A stretch of 64,000 bases of DNA from an uncultured Chloroflexia bacterium (GTDB taxonomy: Bacteria; Chloroflexota; Limnocylindria; Limnocylindrales; CSP1-4). This document shows positions 7,899-58,388 of the stretch, piece by piece. The DNA is taken from the NCBI GenBank assembly GCA_963697135.1, contig CAVOMZ010000013.1, positions 180,859 to 244,858 of the forward strand. The letters run 5' to 3'. The notes under the pieces were generated by a model, which made no database searches, was not told the origin of the DNA, and was given only the letters and a program-made list of their open reading frames with translations. Both the position numbers and the translations under genes were made by a program. Positions within the stretch are counted from its first letter, which is position 1. Each line of letters starts with the position of its first letter.

Positions 7899-10086
7899 AT
7901 GAGCCTCAATGAGTCGATCGAGCTCCTCAAGGGCACCCGCCGGTTCCAGCGGTTCGGCGGGCGAGGTGGCGGGCAGGCCGGCGGGCCGGCGGGTGCCCAG
8001 CGCCCCCGGGGGATCCTCGATCCGGACCTGCTCCGGGCCGCTCTCCCGGAGTCCGTGCGCAAGCTGAATCCGCGCTACCTGATCAAGAACCCGGTCATGT
8101 TCGTGGTCGAGATCACGGCCGCCCTGGTGACCCTGATCGCGGTCGCCAACGTGACCGGGTTCCAGCCGGTGAGCGGTCCATCCGGCTTCGGCTTCCAGGT
8201 CCAGATCGCGATCTGGCTGTGGTTCACCGTCCTGTTTGCGACCTACGCCGAGGCGGTCGCCGAGGCCCGCGGGCGGGCCCAGGCGGCGACCCTCCGCCGG
8301 GCGCGCTCGGTGACGCCAGGCCCATCGGCGGAAGAGCGATGGGACGCCGACGGGAGCCTCGAGCTGGTCGGCTCGGCCGAGCTCCGCCGGGGCGACGTCA
8401 TCGTCGTCCTCGAGGGCGAGACGATCCCCGGCGACGGAGACGTGATCGAGGGGATCGGCTTCGTCAACGAGTCGGCGATCACGGGCGAGTCCGCTCCCGT
8501 CCTGAAGGAGCCGGGCACCGACATCCGGAGCAGCGTCACCGGCGGGACGACCCTGACCAGCGACCAGCTGACGATCCGGATCAGCGCCGATCCGGGCGAG
8601 ACCTTCCTGGACCGGATGATCGCCCTCGTCGAGGGCGCCAAGCGCCAGCGGACGCCCAACGAGATCGCCCTGTCGATCCTGCTGGCCGGCCTGACGATCG
8701 TCTTCTTCCTGGCCGTGGTCACCCTCCGGCCATTCGGCGACTTCGCCGGCACGACGGTCGACACGGTCGCCCTCGTCGCCCTCCTCGTCTGCCTGATCCC
8801 GACCACGATCGGCGGGCTGCTGTCGGCGATCGGAATCGCGGGAATGGACCGGGTGGCCCGCTTCAACGTCCTGGCGATGAGCGGCCGGGCCGTCGAGGCC
8901 TCCGGCGATGTCGACGTGATCCTGCTCGACAAGACCGGCACGATCACCTACGGCAACCGCCTCGCCGCCTCGATCACCCCGGCCCCCGGCGTCACCGAGG
9001 AGGAGGCCGTGACGGCCGCCCTGGTCGCATCGGCCCACGACGAGACGCCAGAAGGCAAGTCCGTCGTCGAGCTGGCCCGACGGCGGCTGGCCGAGCTGAA
9101 GGCCCCAGGCGGCGCCGACGACGAAGCGGGCTTCAAGGCTCTCGCCGCCGCGATCATCGAGGACATCCCGTTCCGGGCCGAGACCCGCACGAGCGGGGTC
9201 CGGCTGGCCGGCGGCGAAGTCGTCCTGAAGGGTGCCGTTGATGCGATCGAGCACGACCTCGACGCCGCCCTGCCGCCGGCCATCCGGGACGAAACTGATC
9301 GCCTGTCCGACGCCGGCGCCACCCCCCTGGCGATGCGCCGGGACGGCCGGATCATCGGCCTGATTGAGCTCAAGGACACGGTCAAGGAAGGCCTCGTCGA
9401 GCGATTTGCGGAGTTCCGCCGGATGGGCATCCGGACGGTCATGGTGACCGGCGACAACCCCCGGACCGCGGCCACGATCGCCCGCGAGGCCGGCGTCGAC
9501 GACTTCATCGCCGAAGCCAAGCCCGAGGACAAGATCGGGTTCATCCGCAAGGAGCAGGCCGAGGGCCATCTCGTGGCGATGACCGGAGACGGCACGAACG
9601 ACGCTCCCGCCCTCGCCCAGGCCGACGTCGGGCTGGCCATGAACAGCGGTACGTCCGCGGCCAAGGAGGCGGCCAACATGGTCGACCTCGATTCGGACCC
9701 GACCAAGCTGCTGGAAGTCATTGCGATCGGCAAGCAGCTCCTGATCACCCGCGGCTCGATCACGACGTTCTCGATCTCGAACGACGTGGCCAAGTACTTC
9801 GCGATCGTGCCGGCGATGTTCGCCGCGGTCTATCCCGAGCTCAACCAGCTCAACATCATGGGCCTGTCGACGCCCCAGAGCGCGATCCTCTCGGCCGTCA
9901 TCTTCAACGCCCTGATCATCGTCGCCCTCATTCCGCTCGCCCTGCGCGGCGTCGGCTTCCGGCCGGCCTCCGGCGAGCGAGCTGCTCCAGCGCAACCTGC
10001 TGATCTACGGACTCGGCGGGATCATCGCCCCATTCATCGGAATCAAGGCGATCGACATCGTCGTGACCGCCCTTCACCTGGCATAG
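7899..10086 (+). pseudogene. kdpB: K+-transporting P-type ATPase subunit B; one frameshift near the 3' end as assembled (about 9972)
   Basis: Motifs [33 protein letters not shown]. After ...[11 protein letters not shown] the conserved tail (A)[36 protein letters not shown] continues in the next frame and ends at TAG 10084-10086. The in-frame reading to 10361 is Arg/Pro-rich junk. Confidence 0.95.
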
Positions 10087-10098
10087 GAAGCTCCTTTG

Positions 10099-10701
10099 AT
10101 GCGTACCTTCGTCAACCACCAGCTTCGCCCCGCGGTCTTCATCCTGGTCCTGCTGACCCTGATCACCGGGGTCGCCTATCCCGGGATCGTGACCGCCATC
10201 GGCCAGGTTGCCTTTCCCTCGCAGGCCAACGGGTCGTTCATCACGGTCAACGGCAGCGTGGTCGGCTCCAGCCTGATCGGCCAGGCCTTCGACCAGCCGA
10301 AGTACTTCTCGGGGCGGCCGTCCGCAGCCGGCGTGACGCCGAGCAATCCGGCGGGCTATGACGGGACCGCCAGCGGTGGGTCCAACCTCGGCCCGACCAG
10401 CAAGACCCTGATCGACCGGATGACGGCAGCCGTCGACGCCCTGCGCCAGGCGAATGGCAACGCGCCAATCCCGGTCGACCTGGTCACGACCTCGGCCTCG
10501 GGCCTCGATCCCGACATCAGCCCAGCCGCGGCCGAATACCAGGTCGCTCGGGTGGCGGCCGCCCGAGGCATGACGGCGGATGCCGTCCGGGCGATCGTGG
10601 CCCGGCACACGACCCAGCCGCTGCTCGGGTTCCTGGGCGAGCCGGTCGTCAACGTCCTCGAGCTCAATCTCGACCTCGACGGGCTGCTGACGACGAGATG
10701 A
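10099..10701 (+). CDS. kdpC: K+-transporting ATPase subunit C
   Basis: ORF 10096-10701. ATG 10099 lies 8 nt after AGGAAG. N-terminal TM helix and KdpC blocks [27 protein letters not shown]. Confidence 0.93.
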
Positions 10702-10717
10702 TGAAGGCAGGCGTCCG

Positions 10718-11881
10718 ATGATCGACAGCCGCGACGATCGACCGACCGGCGAGGAGATGCTCGCCCGGGTGTCGGCCGAGGGTGAGTCCGGGCGCGGCCG
10801 CCTCCGCCTGTACCTGGGCATGGCCCCGGGCGTCGGCAAGACCTACCGGATGCTCGAAGAGGCGCATCGGCGCCTGGAGCGCGGAACCGACATCGTGGTC
10901 GGCTACGTCGAGGTCCATAACAGGCCCCGGACGGCGGCCCTGCTCGAGGGCCTGGAGATCCTGCCCCGGGTCCAGATCAGCTACCAGGGCGTGCTGGTCG
11001 AGGAGATGGACACGGCCGCGATCATCGAGCGCCACCCGGAGGTCGTCCTGGTCGACGAGCTCGCTCACACGAACGTGTCCGGCTCCGCCCGGGAGAAGCG
11101 TTGGCAGGATGTCGAGCTGATTCGCGACGCCGGGATCGACGTGATCAGCACCTGCAACGTCCAGCACCTCGAGTCCGTCGCCGACGCCGTGGCCACGATC
11201 GTCGGTGCGCCGGTCAACGAGCGGCTGCCGGACGCGATCGTGGCCAGCGCCGACGAGGTCGAGCTCGTCGACATGAGTCCGCACGCGCTGCGCCAGAGGA
11301 TCCGCCACGGCAACGTCTATCCACCGGACCGGGCCCGCCTGGCGCTCGACCGGTTCTTCACCGAGGCCAACCTGACCGCCCTGCGCGAGCTGTCGCTCCG
11401 GTTCGTGACCCGGGCGGTCGACGAGCAGCTCGAGGAGATCGTCGGCGAGCAGGGCATCAGCGGGCTCCGTCCGGTCAGCGAGCGGGTCCTCGTCCTGGTC
11501 GACGACCGGCTGATCAGCCGGCGCGCCCTGCGCCGCGGGGCGATGCTCGCCTCGGCCCTCGGGGCCGGCCTGACCGCGGCGGTCATCATCACCCCGGGCA
11601 CCGAACGGCTCTCATTCGACCGAACGCGCGACCTCCAGGAGCAGCTCGACTACGCCGTCGACCTGGGCGCAGACGTCGTCCAGCACCCGGCAGCTGACCT
11701 CCTGGCAGGACTCTCCGAGCTGACTCGGAGCCTGCGAATCACGCATCTCGTCCTGGGCCGACAGCCGCGACGCGGGCTCGCCCCGCGGCTGAGCCCGGAT
11801 GTCGTCGATCGCCTCCTCCTGGTCGCGCCGGACCTGGACATCCACCTCGTCGGAACCGGGCCGGGAGCCGCCCCCGACTGA
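10718..11881 (+). CDS. stand-alone KdpD N-terminal sensor domain plus USP-like domain (no membrane or kinase part)
   Basis: 387-aa ORF. Walker-A-like GMAPGVGKTYRML, VDELAHTN, STCNVQHLES and TALRELSLR are the KdpD N-terminal family pattern, followed by a USP-like half. The protein ends before any TM segment. Confidence 0.85.
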   Translation: MIDSRDDRPTGEEMLARVSAEGESGRGRLRLYLGMAPGVGKTYRMLEEAHRRLERGTDIVVGYVEVHNRPRTAALLEGLEILPRVQISYQGVLVEEMDTAAIIERHPEVVLVDELAHTNVSGSAREKRWQDVELIRDAGIDVISTCNVQHLESVADAVATIVGAPVNERLPDAIVASADEVELVDMSPHALRQRIRHGNVYPPDRARLALDRFFTEANLTALRELSLRFVTRAVDEQLEEIVGEQGISGLRPVSERVLVLVDDRLISRRALRRGAMLASALGAGLTAAVIITPGTERLSFDRTRDLQEQLDYAVDLGADVVQHPAADLLAGLSELTRSLRITHLVLGRQPRRGLAPRLSPDVVDRLLLVAPDLDIHLVGTGPGAAPD

Positions 11882-12025: not shown

Positions 12026-12268
12026 TTGGCTGACGCGCGCCGCCGAGTCAATGCCCATTGCCCAGCCTGTGGCTCGGTCGAGTGGTTCGGCCAGAGCCGG
12101 GCGATCATCTCCGGAGCCCGTGGGAGCCTGACCTGCGTGGAGATGCGCGGGGTGGACGAGGACGAGTGGTTGTGCAACCGCTGTGGCCGGTCCGCGCCGT
12201 TGAACACACCCCTCCGGGCGCTCCTCGACAGCGTCGCATCGCGCACCGACTCGCTGATCGCCAGCTGA
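12026..12268 (+). CDS. hypothetical small zinc-ribbon protein (CPAC...CNRC)
   Basis: 80-aa ORF with a TTG start 8 nt after GAGGAG. Contains two CxxC pairs. No family recognised. Confidence 0.4.
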   Translation: MADARRRVNAHCPACGSVEWFGQSRAIISGARGSLTCVEMRGVDEDEWLCNRCGRSAPLNTPLRALLDSVASRTDSLIAS

Positions 12269-12337: not shown

Positions 12338-12367
12338 TTGACCCAGCCGGAAACGGACGGCTACACT
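12338..12367 (+). promoter_or_regulatory. candidate sigma70-type promoter (TTGACC, 18 nt spacer, TACACT) for the MgtE-N/Nramp pair, implying a leader of roughly 240 nt
   Basis: Hexamers read directly from the sequence. The same TACACT box occurs 7 nt before the trpS ATG. Confidence 0.35.
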
Positions 12368-12612
12368 CGGCCTGTCCAGGACGTCGCCCGTCTGTTCGAA
12401 TTTGTGCGCCCTGGGGACCCAATCAGCACCGGAGGACCCCTCCTCTCGTGGAGTCAGGACCCAGACGAGGGACGCCGGCCAGCCCCGTGAACAGCGCGGA
12501 GCCGGGTCGACGAGCCCGCCAGCACCAGGTCCGCCTCGCCCGCTGACGGCGGCACTCCCCATCGCGGAGTGCGCCACCGACGCGCGGGATCGGACCCGCC
12601 GCGAGGTGGCAG

Positions 12613-13872
12613 ATGCTCTACCTGAGCCAGGTGATCGGCCGGCCGGTCCGTGACCGGAACGACGAGCCGATCGGAAAGGTTGCCGACCTGATCGTCGCCG
12701 TCGGCGATCGGTATCCGCCTGTGACCGGACTCGTGATCGAGACCGACCGGCGCCGGATCTTCCTGCCCTGGACCTCGGTCGACCGGCTGGATGACTCGGG
12801 GGCCAAGCTGAGCACCCTGACAATGGACCTCGAGAAGTTCAGCCAGCGGCCGAACGAGATCCTGCTCCGCTCGGACCTGATGGACAAGCAAATCGTGGAC
12901 ATCGACGGGCGGAAGGTCGTCCGGGTCAACGACCTCCGCCTGGACGAGGTCGAGGGCGCCCTCCACCTGGTCGCGGTCGACGTCGGGGCGGCCGGCCTCC
13001 TGCGCCGGCTGGGGGTCGAAGGCGGCCTGCGCACGGTCGCCCGGAACCTCCACGTCCACGTTCCCGAGAAGTACATCGACTGGGAGGACGTCGACCCGGT
13101 CGAGACCTCGATCGCCTCGATCAAGCTGCGCGTCCCCCACGCCGGCCTGGCCGAGCTCCATCCGGCCGACCTGGCCACGATCATCGACCAGCTCGCGCCG
13201 CGCGACCGGGCCGGTGTCCTGGCCTCCCTCGGCGATGACGCAATCGCCGATGCGATCGAGGAGATGGAGCCCGAAACCCAGGTCGAGGTCCTCGAAGACC
13301 TCGAGCCGGGCCGGGCGGCCGACATCCTCGAGGAGATGTCGCCGGACGACGCGGCCGACCTCGTGGCCGACCTGTCCGAGACGACCCGCGACGAGATCCT
13401 GGCCCTGATGGAGACCGACGAGGCGGCCGAGGTCCAGGAGCTCCTCGGCTATCCCGAAGAATCGGCCGGCGGGATCATGACGACCGAGTTCGTGGCCGTC
13501 CCGGCTCACCTGAGCGCGGCCGAGACGATCGACATGCTCCGCCAGCTCGAGCCGAACGCCGAGACGATCTACTACGTCTACGTGACCGACGACGACGGCC
13601 GGCTGGTCGGCGTCCTGTCCCTGCGCGACCTGATCGTGGCCGGTCCGGACACCCAGATCGGCGAGGTGATGATCAAGGAGCCGGTCGCCGTCGGCGTGCT
13701 GGCCGACCAGGAGGAGGTCGCCGAGGTCGTGGCCCACTACAACCTGCTGGCCGTCCCGGTGATCGATCAGGACGGCCGGCTGGCCGGGATCGTGACCGTC
13801 GACGACGCGCTCGATACGGTCCTGCCCACCGCCTGGAAGCGGCGCCTGCCGCGCCTCTTCGCGCGCGGCTAG
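12613..13872 (+). CDS. soluble PRC-barrel / MgtE N-terminal domain / tandem CBS protein (MgtE cytoplasmic sensor module without the MgtE membrane domain)
   Basis: 419-aa ORF; SD GAGGTGG precedes the ATG. The N-terminal part is PRC-barrel-like. The acidic helical region LHPADLATIIDQL...DDAIADAIEEM...AADILEEMSPDDAADLVADL matches MgtE_N. Two CBS repeats follow (GGIMTTEF...VTDDDGRLVGVLSLRDL; ...VPVIDQDGRLAGIVTVDD). The protein ends with no TM helices. Confidence 0.85.
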   Translation: MLYLSQVIGRPVRDRNDEPIGKVADLIVAVGDRYPPVTGLVIETDRRRIFLPWTSVDRLDDSGAKLSTLTMDLEKFSQRPNEILLRSDLMDKQIVDIDGRKVVRVNDLRLDEVEGALHLVAVDVGAAGLLRRLGVEGGLRTVARNLHVHVPEKYIDWEDVDPVETSIASIKLRVPHAGLAELHPADLATIIDQLAPRDRAGVLASLGDDAIADAIEEMEPETQVEVLEDLEPGRAADILEEMSPDDAADLVADLSETTRDEILALMETDEAAEVQELLGYPEESAGGIMTTEFVAVPAHLSAAETIDMLRQLEPNAETIYYVYVTDDDGRLVGVLSLRDLIVAGPDTQIGEVMIKEPVAVGVLADQEEVAEVVAHYNLLAVPVIDQDGRLAGIVTVDDALDTVLPTAWKRRLPRLFARG

Positions 13873-13902
13873 GCTCGGCGGCGCGGAAGGACAGCCGAAG
13901 CG

Positions 13903-15339
13903 ATGCCCCAGCTGCCGACCGTCCGGGGCGTCGCCCGCCAGGCCGAAACCGGTGCCCGCCGGGCGGTGGAGACCTGGCGCCATCCGAGCGAGCGACGGGG
14001 GCGGCCGGTCCGACCGCCCAAGCTCGGATTCATCGATCGGCTCCGCGAGCGGATCGCCAACCGCGAGTTCCTGCGCCTGCGCGGGCGGTTCCGGGGCCGG
14101 CATGGCCTGATCGCGTTCCTGGCCGTGATGGGCCCGGGCCTGATCGCCGGGATCGCCGGCAACGACGCCGGCGGGATCACCACCTACAGCGTGATGGGTG
14201 CGACGACCGGGCTGACCCTGCTCTGGATCTTCCCGATCACGATCCTGATCCTGGCCGTGGTCCAGGAGATCGCGGCCCGCCTCGGGGTTGTGACCGGCCA
14301 GGGCTTGTCGGACCTGATCCGCGACCGGTTCGGCGTCCGCTGGACCGCATTCGCGATGGTCGTCCTGCTCGTGGCCAACCTGGCCAACACGGTCGCCGAG
14401 TTCTCGGGCGCGGCGGCCGCCCTCGACATCTTCGGGGTCTCGCGGTACGTCACGGTCCCGGTCGTGGCGGTTGCGATCTGGGCCCTCGTCCTGTTCTCGA
14501 GCTACCGCACGGTCGAGCGAGTCTTCCTGGCCGTGTCCCTCGTCTTCGTGACCTACATCTTCTCGGCGATCCTGGCCCATCCCGACTGGAGCCAGGTCGG
14601 CCACGCCCTGATCACGCCCAACCTGTCGGGCCTCTCGCCCAGCGTCCTGCTCCTGATCGTGGGGGTCGTGGGCACGACGATCACCCCGTACATGCAGTTC
14701 TACCTTCAATCGGCGGTCGCCGAGAAAGGTATCGGGGAGGAGGAGCTCGTCCTGGAACAGGCCGACGCGGTCGGGGGTGCCGTGTGGACGAACGTGATCG
14801 CGGTGTTCATCGTGATCGCGACGGCCCTGACGATCTATGCCGTCGGGGGCACGATCACCTCGGCCAGCGATGCGGCCAAGGCCCTCGAGCCGGTGGCCGG
14901 CAACCTGGCCGAAGTCCTCTTCGCGATCGGCCTGTTCGGGGCCAGCGTCCTGGCCGCGACGATCATGCCGATCTCGACCTCGTTCGTGATCTGCGAGGCG
15001 TTCGGCTGGGAGTCGGGGGTCGGCAACCGGTTCAGCGACGCCCGGGCGTTCTTCGGGATCTACACCTTCGTCCTGGCGGTCGGTGCGCTCGTCGTGCTGA
15101 TTCCCGGGATCGACCTGCTGCCGGTCATCCTGGCTTCGCAGTACCTCCAGGGCCTGCTCCTGCCGATCGTCCTCGTGTTCATGGTCCTGCTCGTCAACGA
15201 CAAGGTCCTGATGGGCCGCCATGCCAACGGTCGGATCGCGAACGTACTGGCCTGGCTGTCGGTCGGGCTGGTGATCGTGCTGGACATCGTCCTGTTGCTC
15301 GTGGCCGCCCTGCAGGTCTTCGGAGTCAAGGTTGGCTGA
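13903..15339 (+). CDS. Nramp-related transporter with non-canonical metal-site motifs (NRMT-like, possible Mg2+ transporter)
   Basis: 478-aa polytopic ORF. TM1 reads MGPGLIAGIAGNDAGGITT where canonical Nramp has DPGN. TM6 reads VGTTITPYMQFYLQS where canonical Nramp has MPHNLYLHS. Confidence 0.85.
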   Translation: MPQLPTVRGVARQAETGARRAVETWRHPSERRGRPVRPPKLGFIDRLRERIANREFLRLRGRFRGRHGLIAFLAVMGPGLIAGIAGNDAGGITTYSVMGATTGLTLLWIFPITILILAVVQEIAARLGVVTGQGLSDLIRDRFGVRWTAFAMVVLLVANLANTVAEFSGAAAALDIFGVSRYVTVPVVAVAIWALVLFSSYRTVERVFLAVSLVFVTYIFSAILAHPDWSQVGHALITPNLSGLSPSVLLLIVGVVGTTITPYMQFYLQSAVAEKGIGEEELVLEQADAVGGAVWTNVIAVFIVIATALTIYAVGGTITSASDAAKALEPVAGNLAEVLFAIGLFGASVLAATIMPISTSFVICEAFGWESGVGNRFSDARAFFGIYTFVLAVGALVVLIPGIDLLPVILASQYLQGLLLPIVLVFMVLLVNDKVLMGRHANGRIANVLAWLSVGLVIVLDIVLLLVAALQVFGVKVG

Positions 15340-16138
15340 CGAGGCCCGGGTCGCCTGGCTGGCGAGTGCGCCGGTCAAGTCGATGGCCCTGGCGATCCGC
15401 TCCGAGGTCGAGGTCGGGCCGGCCGGGATCGCCGGCGACCGGCACTTCGCGGTCATCGACCCGAACGACCGGCTGGTCAACGGCAAGCGGATCGGCCCGC
15501 TGGCCACGATCGTGCCGGGGGTGCTCCAGGACCCGGAGCGGCTCAAGCTCGTCTTTCCGGATGGCCTGCTGGTCCACGGCGACATCGAGCTGGGCCCGGC
15601 CGTCGAGGCGATCTTCCACGGCACGCAGCGGCCGGTCCACGAGGTGGTCGGGCCGTTCTCGGCGGCGCTCACCCGCTGGGCCGGCCATCCGCTGCGGCTG
15701 GTCCGGCTGGATGACGAAGGCGGCGGGATCGACCGGGCTCCCGAGGGGGGCGGCTTCTCGATCATCTCCCGCGGATCGCTCCGGGCCCTGGCCGAGGCGG
15801 CCGGCCTCGATCAGCCGCTCGACCCGCGCCGGTTCCGGATGTCGGTCGTGGTCGAAGGGGTGGAGCCATACGCCGAGGACGGCTGGCTCGGCCGGCGGGT
15901 CCGCCTCGGCGAGGTCGTGGTCGCACCGATCGGCAACGTCGGTCGCTGCGCGATCACGACCCAGGATCCTGATACCGGCCGGCGCAGCCTGGATACGCTC
16001 GAGCTGATCGCCACGACCCGGGGCCGCCTGCCCACGACGGAAGCCCTGCCGTTCGGGATCTTCGGCTCGGTCGTGACCCCCGGGCGAATCCGCCTCGGCG
16101 ACGAGGTCAGCGTCCTGGACGACGAGCCCGGCACCTGA
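15332..16138 (+). CDS. MOSC domain-containing protein
   Basis: 268-aa ORF; the TTG start overlaps the transporter stop. Contains N-terminal beta-barrel-like and MOSC parts with conserved GRCAITTQDPDTG. Confidence 0.8.
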   Translation: MADEARVAWLASAPVKSMALAIRSEVEVGPAGIAGDRHFAVIDPNDRLVNGKRIGPLATIVPGVLQDPERLKLVFPDGLLVHGDIELGPAVEAIFHGTQRPVHEVVGPFSAALTRWAGHPLRLVRLDDEGGGIDRAPEGGGFSIISRGSLRALAEAAGLDQPLDPRRFRMSVVVEGVEPYAEDGWLGRRVRLGEVVVAPIGNVGRCAITTQDPDTGRRSLDTLELIATTRGRLPTTEALPFGIFGSVVTPGRIRLGDEVSVLDDEPGT

Positions 16139-45730: not shown

Positions 45731-45825
45731 CGCCCCTCGTCCCCCGGCGCTCGCCGGGTGACGCTCCCCCGCTTCTTCCGGGTCCGGAGCGCACGACAAG
45801 GCCCGGACTGGACTACCATCGCCCG

Positions 45826-45985
45826 ACAACTGAATAGGTCCGTTCGACCAAGGGAAGCCGGTGTGAATCCGGCGCTGTCGCGCAACTGTCAACGGGGAAC
45901 GGCCGGCCACGATGCCACTGGGCGCGAGCCCGGGAAGGCGGCCGGACGTGCTGATCCGTGAGCCAGGAGACCTGCTCGGACGGGT
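45826..45985 (+). promoter_or_regulatory. cobalamin (B12) riboswitch
   Basis: Contains the conserved core AAGGGAAGCCGGTGTGAATCCGGCGCTGTCGCGCAACTGT, then GCCACTGGG...CCCGGGAAGGC and the B12-box AGCCAGGAGACCTGC (45961-45975). It lies about 85 nt upstream of the SD and GTG of the next gene. Confidence 0.85.
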
Positions 45986-46069
45986 TGTCATCCCACCCGC
46001 GCAGATCGGTAGATGAACCTCTGACGGCAGGTTTCGCGGTGTGGGCCGTTCGCCGTCGGAGGAACCACC

Positions 46070-56919: not shown

Positions 56920-58388
56920 GCTTCTCGCCGGCCCCGACGAGCGCGTCGCGCGCCTCCGCCGAGGTCGCCTCCGTGTACACCCGCACGAGCGGCTCGGTGC
57001 CGCTGAACCGGATCAGCAGCCACGAGCCGTCGGCGCGGAAGAACTTGAAGCCGTCGTTCGTGTCAGCGGCTTCGGTCCGGGTCGACCGGCTGGCCGGCGA
57101 GCTCCGTCGGGCGTGCTCGCGCGAGGTCCACGAGCAGCCGGTCCTTACGCCGGCGTACAGGTCCTCGCTCGACGTGGACGTCGATCCGCCGGTAGAACGA
57201 CGGCCCGGCGAGCTCGTGGAAGTGGGCGAGCGTCTTCGAGACCGGCCAGCGCCCGGCGGCCTTCTCGCGCAGGAACAGGTCGAGCAGGAGCAGGTCGGCG
57301 TAGATGCCGTCGCGCTCGGGCAGGTGCATCCCGAAGCCGAAGCCGCCCGACTCCTCGGCGCCCATCATCGCGCCGGTCTCGATCATCTTCGGGCCGATGA
57401 ACTTGAAGCCGACCGGGGTCTCGTGGACCTGGATCCCGTAGTGCTTCCCGAGCCGGGCCGCCATCGACGTGTTGTTGACGGTGATCGACGACCGGCTGGC
57501 GCAGGCCGCGGTGCTCGGCCAGGTAGTACATGAGCAGCCCGGTGACCTCGAGCTGGTGGATGAAGTTGCCCTGCTCGTCGGCCGCGCCGGCGCGGTCGGC
57601 GTCGCCGTCGAGGAGCAGCCCGAGGTCGTGCCGCCGCCGGCCAGGATCCCGAGCGCCTCGTCGATGTTCGGCCGGATCGGCTCGGGGTTGACGCCGCCGA
57701 AGTACGGGTTGCGCTCCTGGTGGATCTCGGTGACGCGGATCCGGCCGCCGGCGAGGAGGCGGCGGGAGCCAGCCCGCGCCGGCGCCCCACATCGGCTCGA
57801 CGAGGACGTCGACGTCGGCCGCCTTGAGGGCGTCGAGGTCGACCGTCCGCCGGACGAACCGCTCGTAGCCCTCGTACGGGTCGTAGCGCTCGACGAGGCC
57901 GGCCGCCTCGGCGTCGGCGAACGGCCGGCGCTCGATCGGCCGTGCCGCCGTTCGGGCGATCGCCGCCTCGAGGACGGCGAGGATGTCCGGCCCGGCGGCC
58001 GAGCCGGTCGGCGCCTTGACCTTGAAGCCGTTGTCGGTCCACGGGTTGTGGCTGGCGGTGATCACGATGCCGGCCGCGGCGCCGCGCTCGACGACCTCGT
58101 ACGAGCACATCTGGGTCGGCACGGCGTGCCGGGCGATAGGCGACCGGGATGTCGTGGGCGAGGAGGACCTCGGCGGCGGCCTCGGCGAAGTGCTCCGAGG
58201 CGAACCGCCGGTCGTAGGCGATGACGACGCCCTTGGCCTGCTCGCCCCGCTCGACGACGTAGCGCGCGACGCCGTCGGCGCAGCGGCGGACGTTCTCGAA
58301 CGTGAAGTCGTCGGCGATCCGGGCCCGCCAGCCGTCGGTGCCGAAGACGATCGTCGTCGGGCTGCGGGGCCTGGCTGATCGTGGTCAC
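56903..58388 (-). pseudogene. phosphomannomutase/phosphoglucomutase (alpha-D-phosphohexomutase family); at least six frameshifts
   Basis: GTG 58388 follows GGGAGG. FGTDGWRA, VITASHNPWTDNGFKV, GLLLDGDADRAG, ETPVGFKFIG, GAEESGGFG and RFSGTEPLVRVYTEA are spread over three frames (ORFs 58062-59132, 57145-59487, 57063-57464). Ends ...EKLVRAA* at 56903. Confidence 0.85.

Follow-up and report, generated by a model that had tools for sequence, protein, structure and literature searches.

In a window of 64,000 nucleotides (the whole stretch of DNA analysed here) from contig CAVOMZ010000013.1 of an uncultured Chloroflexia bacterium, two neighbouring genes appear to encode the two halves of a magnesium uptake system. 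The first gene product, called the partner in the following, is a soluble protein that contains the cytosolic Mg2+ sensor of MgtE channels. The second is a transporter of the NRMT clade of the SLC11/Nramp family. The partner and NRMT genes travel together across bacterial and archaeal phyla. Both the pairing and the hypothesis that one protein regulates the other were already published in 2014, and the locus in the window is a further example of this known operon type. Regulation of the transporter by the sensor in trans is plausible, as a proposal only, and has indirect support: the Mg2+ ligands of the sensor are conserved, structure prediction gives a docking signal, the operon stands under an M-box riboswitch in other phyla, and the pair and canonical MgtE come close to an either/or distribution in three families of the class. 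That the partner is a Mg2+-feedback gate of the NRMT carrier is, in our estimate, slightly favoured over the sum of its alternatives.

A sensor without a pore and a transporter of the NRMT clade

The two open reading frames (ORFs) lie on the same strand and in a common reading frame, with a TAG stop and 30 nt between them (Table 1). The original prediction had given these coordinates, the spacing and the domain content of the pair, and the ORF listing and a Pfam profile search agree with it on all three. In the partner, PF05239 (PRC) matches in two stretches (5e-11), PF03448 (MgtE_N) once (3.3e-27) and PF00571 (CBS) again in two stretches (4.4e-18). The model TIGR00400 (mgtE) covers the partner at profile positions 26-251 of 450 only and scores 210.7 against a cut-off of 232.75; as the match is partial and falls below the cut-off, the membrane or pore half is missing. 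No match to the MgtE membrane domain PF01769 was found downstream of the partner or elsewhere in the assembly that holds the window (3.06 Mb in 28 contigs, 63% complete; the window itself has about 70% G+C), and the AlphaFold2 (AF2) model of the partner contains no transmembrane (TM) helix. Judged from its sequence, the partner is thus not an MgtE channel, since the C-terminal five-helix pore domain is absent, and the earlier description of a sensor protein without a membrane domain holds.

Folded alone, from a 59-sequence multi-phylum alignment, the partner reaches a predicted local distance difference test score (pLDDT) of 85 and a predicted template-modelling score (pTM) of 0.65. The model consists of two beta-barrels, a disordered linker (residues 162-176), a helical N domain, a CBS pair and a short C-terminal helix (406-411). 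Residues 177-404 align to the cytosolic domain of Thermus thermophilus MgtE (TtMgtE; 2yvy) with an E-value of 2.6e-50 in phmmer, and Foldseek superimposes the C-terminal half of the model on Mg2+-bound MgtE (2yvy) with a template-modelling score of 0.87, normalised to the target, and a root-mean-square deviation of 1.9 Å. The acidic residues whose mutation abolishes Mg2+-dependent closure have been tested in TtMgtE (PMC5882242). Of six ligand positions, five are kept in the partner, where E59, D91, D95, D247 and D250 of TtMgtE correspond to D213, D245, D249, D398 and D401, and these five are acidic in 44-56 of the 59 partner homologs. The ATP contacts of MgtE (positions according to PMC5529423) are conserved only in part: Y170, R187 and D188 are kept, and the adenine contacts N203 and F227 are replaced by Ile and Leu, which makes modulation by ATP doubtful. 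The most conserved motif of the family lies in the second PRC barrel and the residues following it (D91-x-Q93-x-x-D96...R104-V-N106-D107...D123-x-G125...R131-R132). In the same 59-sequence alignment, most columns that are invariant over the whole partner family also fall there (D91, Q93, D96, R104, N106, D107, D123 and R131).

The transporter matches PF01566 (Nramp) over profile positions 1-356 of 357 (1.6e-87). Its closest solved relative is EleNRMT of Eggerthella lenta (7qia; E=6e-118, 398 bits, 48.9% identity), and the best canonical MntH, DraNramp, gives E=1.8e-25 and 93 bits. In a maximum-likelihood tree (a quick search with a single outgroup and support only from the SH-like approximate likelihood ratio test, SH-aLRT) the transporter of the window sits deep within the EleNRMT clade; the branch leading to DraNramp has a length of 10. 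Scores and tree thus place the transporter with the NRMT group and away from the Mn2+/Fe2+ Nramps, as had been proposed, and alignment to EleNRMT shows that the TM1 and TM6 motifs had been read correctly by eye. The metal site carries the NRMT signature, in which the TM1 Asp is kept and Asn becomes Gly, and in TM6 Ala becomes Thr and Met becomes a small residue. The site had been called altered; it does depart from canonical Nramp, but the TM6 Thr is nothing unusual within the clade. Among 56 clade representatives, clustered at 50% identity, the TM1 Asp is found in 54 and the second Gly in 47. Position 261, the place of the canonical Met, is Thr in 21, Ala in 17 and Ser in 14, together 52 of 56. 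The published NRMT consensus at this position is Ala (PMC8806188). Thr is thus an ordinary residue here, since it is the commonest state among the representatives, and an unusual metal site within the NRMT clade can be ruled out.

EleNRMT carries Mg2+ and Mn2+ without proton coupling, and its residue T224 is required for Mg2+ and less so for Mn2+ (PMC8806188). The residues D55, G58, T224, E133 and Q379 of EleNRMT are kept as D88, G91, T258, E166 and Q413. The His pair of helix 6b found in canonical Nramps is absent: the positions are Y263 and L268 in the window's transporter and Trp and Asn in EleNRMT. By sequence comparison, then, the transporter is an NRMT that keeps every residue shown to be important in EleNRMT, and from this likeness uncoupled transport of Mg2+ and Mn2+, with the ion partly hydrated, is predicted.

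The same genome has a second NRMT-like gene, of a type called B below, on another contig (C17:56427-57755; locus L088 1428-2756) with no partner nearby. Its middle third (Pfam positions 198-313) matches in another frame (57187-57525), which implies two compensating frameshifts, and its branch in the tree is 1.6 long; the gene is a pseudogene or else misassembled.

Linkage of the pair and its proposed regulation in trans

Full-length homologs of the partner occur in 99 of the 151 genomes of the window's class, and in 93 of these 99 a same-strand NRMT match lies directly downstream; several of the six exceptions are at contig ends. For the reverse survey, a 16-sequence alignment was used to fetch 80 NRMT loci of species representatives, drawn from many phyla. 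These phyla include Bacillota, Acidobacteriota, Nitrospirota, Thermodesulfobacteriota, Omnitrophota, Armatimonadota, Dormiibacterota and Planctomycetota, as well as three archaeal lineages. Enough upstream DNA for counting partners was present at 73 loci. A full-length partner lies directly upstream at 55 of the 73, with one more cut by a contig end, directly downstream at one and nearby at five. The alignment begins at residue 1-4 at all loci with a partner, so both PRC barrels are standard architecture and not a local feature. The pair thus co-occurs elsewhere, as the original prediction had required, both in the class and across phyla.

Natural fusions of partner and NRMT, of the Rosetta-stone kind, were looked for among seven unusually long or odd representatives, and none was found; P0205, in which a CBS fragment is joined to an Nramp fragment, looks like a gene-call artefact. 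At one locus of another Chloroflexia metagenome-assembled genome (L076 2889-4409, DATGEF010000422.1) a frame of 507 codons directly follows the NRMT gene and matches the MgtE_N-CBS part only (residues 177-412). By its length this frame could be a full MgtE or a membrane-anchored variant of the partner.

In the family to which the window belongs, the partners form one clade, and the adjacent transporter comes from one of two NRMT lineages. Type A, which includes the window's transporter, has descended vertically in the class. Type B shares about 45% identity with it, and its closest neighbour is an Armatimonadota sequence. Along the partner tree the two types alternate, with three switches or more, and in two genomes (G080 and G134) the partner is followed by two tandem type-B genes. 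The switches were compared over loci L089-L102 (genomes G005, G014, G038, G047, G071, G074, G080, G095, G107, G113, G119, G125, G134 and G137). It appears that the partner can serve either NRMT lineage, or that it needs no lineage-specific interface.

Two further observations tie the operon to magnesium. Of 16 loci sampled from other phyla, 6 have an M-box immediately ahead of the operon, a connection of this operon type to Mg2+ that does not depend on homology. In families f1, f2 and f4 of the class taken together, one genome has both the pair and MgtE, 55 have the pair only, 31 MgtE only and 14 neither; these counts are not phylogenetically independent, for which reason the either/or pattern is suggestive only.

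Direct contact between the two proteins was approached by structure prediction. The pair was folded as a read-through chain of 908 residues (12613-15336 translated, with the TAG read as Gln), with an alignment of 14 read-through pairs from other phyla that are just as natural, supplemented by unpaired rows. The chain reaches pLDDT 87 and pTM 0.81, with a disordered linker of about 50 residues (417-467). By our own estimate, two bodies of undefined relative position would give a pTM close to the share of the chain taken up by the larger one, some 0.45-0.5, and since the value found is above this, AF2 places the partner confidently against the transporter. In addition, the pLDDT of partner residues 71-160 rises from 71-91 alone to 83-96 with the transporter in the chain, and the C-terminal helix of the partner extends to residue 421. 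The model suggests that the partner docks directly on the transporter, probably via PRC barrel 2 and the helices after it.

From these results the following mechanism can be proposed. Both genes would form one operon for Mg2+ uptake, and the soluble partner would dock on the cytoplasmic face of the transporter, probably with PRC barrel 2, the helices following it and the basic C-terminal tail. At high cytosolic Mg2+, ions would bridge the N and CBS domains of the partner as they do in MgtE, and the compact partner would hold the carrier shut, which amounts to feedback inhibition. With falling Mg2+ the module would loosen and uptake would resume. Unlike MgtE, the partner probably does not make the same use of ATP. 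In the window's lineage, which has no M-box, expression is perhaps set by a short MgtL-like leader peptide.

Several observations weigh against such a gate. In the partner column comparison no position of the partner distinguishes cleanly between transporter types A and B; the best partial trackers are position 417 in the C-terminal tail and position 139 after the second PRC barrel, and a specific co-evolved interface is therefore not evident. The docking signal consists of pTM and pLDDT values from a single chain, and an artificial fusion can inflate such confidence. The sixth Mg2+ ligand, D226 of TtMgtE, is Asn in most partner homologs. At ten of the 73 NRMT loci, the nearest 4 kb contain no partner. 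Family f3 breaks the either/or pattern, with the pair and MgtE together in 27 of 49 genomes, and the counts for the other families share ancestry, as said. The window's assembly also contains two CorA genes, so the pair is not the sole route for Mg2+. In the experiments of Shin et al. (PMC4072509), transporters complemented a Mg2+-transport mutant without the partner, co-expression of the A. capsulatum partner left the Mg2+ rescue unchanged, and A. capsulatum NrmT rescued a Mn2+ mutant fully and a Mg2+ mutant weakly.

The tight linkage in the operon and the docking signal fit equally well with a partner that is a positive factor, which opens, stabilises or assembles the carrier at low Mg2+ and is no brake at high Mg2+. 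Loci with an M-box, which switch on both genes together at low Mg2+, would suit such a helper. We regard it as unlikely, as C. acetobutylicum NrmT (PMC4072509) and EleNRMT (PMC8806188) transport without any partner, and the homologous module in MgtE closes the pore upon Mg2+ binding (PMC5882242). The substrate might also be Mn2+ or another transition metal, with the partner sensing that metal or the general load of divalent cations. The A. capsulatum rescue just mentioned comes from a pair that has a partner and no M-box, EleNRMT carries Mn2+ too (PMC8806188), and the window's locus likewise has no M-box while two CorA genes are available for Mg2+. This reading nevertheless seems quite unlikely, for the equivalents of T224 and G58 of EleNRMT are kept together with the enlarged-site signature, the partner conserves the Mg2+ ligands of MgtE, the pair is close to an either/or with MgtE in three families, and in other phyla the operon is under an M-box.

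A further explanation makes the partner a buffer for cytosolic Mg2+ or a chaperone that receives ions from the carrier, or else a Mg2+ sensor with some other target, contacted for instance by the PRC barrels, and simply expressed along with the carrier. The chaperone idea was raised by Shin et al. (PMC4072509), PRC barrels occur in proteins with other partners, and both the lack of a partner residue that tracks the transporter lineage and the five loci where the partner is nearby and non-adjacent would fit. Against this, in nearly all cases across phyla the two genes are direct neighbours on one strand, AF2 sets both proteins confidently together, and sites of millimolar affinity make a poor chaperone; we consider the explanation improbable. 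That the soluble protein is a broken MgtE, its membrane domain lost by a frameshift or assembly error, is hinted at only by the incomplete assembly and the frameshifted look of the second NRMT-like gene, and it is refuted, as the original prediction had anticipated, by over 100 protein clusters of 418-420 aa (identity 84-100%) that come from independent assemblies and carry the identical domain set, by the full-length homologs in the class and across phyla, by the lack of PF01769 in the genome and by the start of the Nramp gene 30 nt past the stop.

If the partner is indeed a feedback gate, one regulatory module would be common to a channel and an unrelated secondary-transporter fold, and the published transport properties of NRMTs would describe an unregulated half-system. 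The structural work on EleNRMT left the MgtE-like partner, described in 2014, out of account. For a test of gating the locus in the window opens no new way, as hundreds of other pairs could serve as well. What it contributes to the design of experiments is a set of residues to mutate (D245, D249, D398 and D401), the hint that contact is likely made by PRC barrel 2 and the C-terminal tail, and evidence that one partner is compatible with more than one NRMT lineage.

The operon leader and the neighbouring genes

In the 5' leader of the window's operon, the M-box model RF00380 has no match at its gathering threshold or at E<=10, and there is no match to another known riboswitch, which rules out both as leader elements here; an M-box is also absent at the closest relative of the window. 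The predicted fold of the leader is no more stable than that of shuffled sequences (z=+0.41). In Peptococcaceae bacterium CEB3 an NRMT gene whose nearest 4 kb contain no partner has an M-box immediately ahead of it (L070 3557-3723), so riboswitch control and presence of the partner can be uncoupled.

A consensus scan of the leader region found two promoter-like sites where 0.1 would be expected, and the TTGACC...CTACACT block of the one listed in Table 1 recurs, conserved, in the leaders of relatives from Limnocylindria (L008-L011 and L013). Downstream of it, a hairpin of four pairs is formed in 15-17 of 17 family leaders; the pairs never vary and thus provide no support from covariation. The hairpin precedes a mini-ORF whose pattern, M-[E/D]-x-G-P-[S/R]...VRPxx(R)-stop, is found at 18 of 21 loci of the family, with lengths of 21-44 codons and at 136-206 nt ahead of the partner ATG. 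The Pro codon varies between CCC, CCU, CCG and CCA, and the use of all four synonymous codons argues for selection on the peptide. Over a wider set of loci the motif occurs in 8 of 58, compared with 0 in reverse-complement controls and 0.6 in shuffles; outside the window's lineage it is at background level (2 of 52). An exact match to another pattern, M-D-[D/E]-[G/D]-P, is absent here.

The mini-ORF may act as a Mg2+-dependent control of the MgtL kind in place of the M-box. A leader peptide specific to this lineage would be a second tie of operon expression to Mg2+, and one that is not a riboswitch. Taken together with the results on the pair, a wider scheme can be drawn, which we put forward tentatively and hold to be possible though rather less than probable. 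In it, the protein with the architecture PRC-PRC-MgtE_N-CBS would be an exchangeable Mg2+ gate that stands on its own, docks by its PRC barrels on the cytoplasmic face of a LeuT-fold carrier and serves several NRMT lineages, so that one sensor fold would act on a channel in cis (MgtE) and on a carrier in trans (NRMT), and in Limnocylindria an independently evolved MgtL-like leader peptide would control the operon in place of the M-box.

Table 1. Coordinates of the operon and its leader elements in the window.
Feature	Position	Strand	Remarks
Promoter-like site TTGACC-18 nt-TACACT	12338..12367	+	About 245 nt upstream of partner ATG; consensus scan
Hairpin GGAG-loop-CUCC	12431..12443	+	Holds Shine-Dalgarno sequence of mini-ORF; RNAalifold, 17 family leaders
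Leader mini-ORF MESGPRRGTPASPVNSAEPGRRARQHQVRLAR	12448..12546	+	GTG start, 32 codons; candidate MgtL-like regulatory peptide
Partner gene	12613..13872	+	419 aa, soluble, PRC-PRC-MgtE_N-CBS-CBS; 'MgtE-like fragment' of nrmT operons
Two PRC beta-barrels (residues 1-66, 82-123), helical hairpin 126-145, strand 154-156	12613..13092	+	Pfam, AF2
MgtE-type cytosolic sensor: helical N domain (residues 177-283), CBS pair (284-403)	13141..13821	+	phmmer, Foldseek
Short basic C-terminal tail (LPTAWKRRLPRLFARG)	13822..13869	+	At position of MgtE plug-helix start; MgtE alignment stops at residue 404
Transporter gene	13903..15339	+	478 aa, NRMT-clade SLC11/Nramp
TM1 metal-site motif N87-D88-A89-G90-G91	14161..14175	+	Equivalents of EleNRMT D55, G58
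TM6 metal-site motif G257-T258-T-I-T261-P-Y263-M-Q-F266	14671..14700	+	Equivalents of EleNRMT T224, A227

Among the genes around the pair, a MOSC-domain gene (15332-16138) begins 8 nt ahead of the transporter stop codon, an overlap that suggests co-transcription in this genome. Upstream, at 7899-11881, kdpB and kdpC are followed by a KdpD of 387 aa with the N-terminal sensor domain (PF02702) only and a weak Usp match. It has neither the membrane part nor the kinase part, and is thereby a second stand-alone sensor module in the window. Between this kdpD and the operon leader lies an 80-aa ORF (12026-12268) with two CxxC pairs (CPACG...CNRCG) that looks like a zinc ribbon; Pfam gives no match for it, and none of the 80 NRMT loci contains a homolog. 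The MOSC gene, the zinc-ribbon ORF and the short KdpD can be ruled out as conserved members of the operon, since they do not recur in the 80 loci, where the sole recurrence of a neighbour gene is one KdpD-domain match in L070. A cobalamin riboswitch (RF00174, 104.5 bits) at 45825-45993 has no relation to the magnesium pair.

Comparison with known systems

NrmT was defined by Shin et al. (PLoS Genet 2014, 10:e1004429, PMC4072509), who found that most nrmT genes adjoin a gene for an MgtE cytoplasmic domain and floated 'cytoplasmic feedback regulation of transport' or chaperone activity as the role of its product. The published pairs (the Ca_c0685 operon of C. acetobutylicum and Acp2976/Acp2977 of A. 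capsulatum) have the same genes in the same order as the window. An M-box is frequent upstream of the published nrmT operons, though not universal, as the A. capsulatum pair is without one. The locus in the window differs from the M-box-bearing pairs in this respect and in its host, a Chloroflexota bacterium of the class Limnocylindria. Near relatives of the proteins in the window are recorded as Candidatus Limnocylindrales, Chloroflexota. A literature search found no publication later than that of 2014 that settles the role of the partner, and none that combines MgtE, PRC-barrel and CBS.

For the transporter, the obvious comparison is EleNRMT (7qia, 7qic, 7qji and 7qjj; PMC8806188), which was studied without any partner. 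The TM1 sequence AGNDAGG is identical in both, the equivalents of T224, E133 and Q379 are present, and both are without His in helix 6b. They differ at the canonical Met position, which is Thr (T261) in the window and Ala in EleNRMT, and in the cytosolic N-terminus, which is longer and Arg-rich in the window's transporter (about 70 residues).

The leader peptide has a possible counterpart in MgtL of the enterobacterial mgtA gene, which is likewise a short leader ORF of a Mg2+ transporter operon. As described in bioRxiv 10.1101/2021.02.02.429294, which cites Chadani et al. 2017 for intrinsic ribosome destabilisation by EPDP, E. coli MgtL senses low Mg2+ by destabilisation of the ribosome and starts with MEPDPT. 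Compared with the sequence given there, the mini-ORF starts with MESGP in the window and with MEPGPS in relatives; it has two to three D, E or P among the first six residues, where MgtL has four, and it has a conserved Gly and comes from another phylum. The resemblance is suggestive, and weaker in acidic and proline content.

The closest known system for the partner is the cytosolic gate of MgtE from T. thermophilus (2yvy, 2zy9 and 5x9g; PMC5882242, PMC5529423), with which it has the fold of the N domain and the CBS pair in common. In MgtE these cytosolic domains function as dimers. The acidic ligands of the sites Mg4, Mg6 and Mg7 and one ligand of Mg5 are kept. Differences are the exchange of D226 for Asn and of N203 and F227 for Ile and Leu, the absence of PF01769 and of the connection from plug helix to pore, and the presence of two extra PRC barrels at the N-terminus. 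Whereas the gate of MgtE acts in cis on its own channel, the partner would act in trans on a carrier of the LeuT fold.

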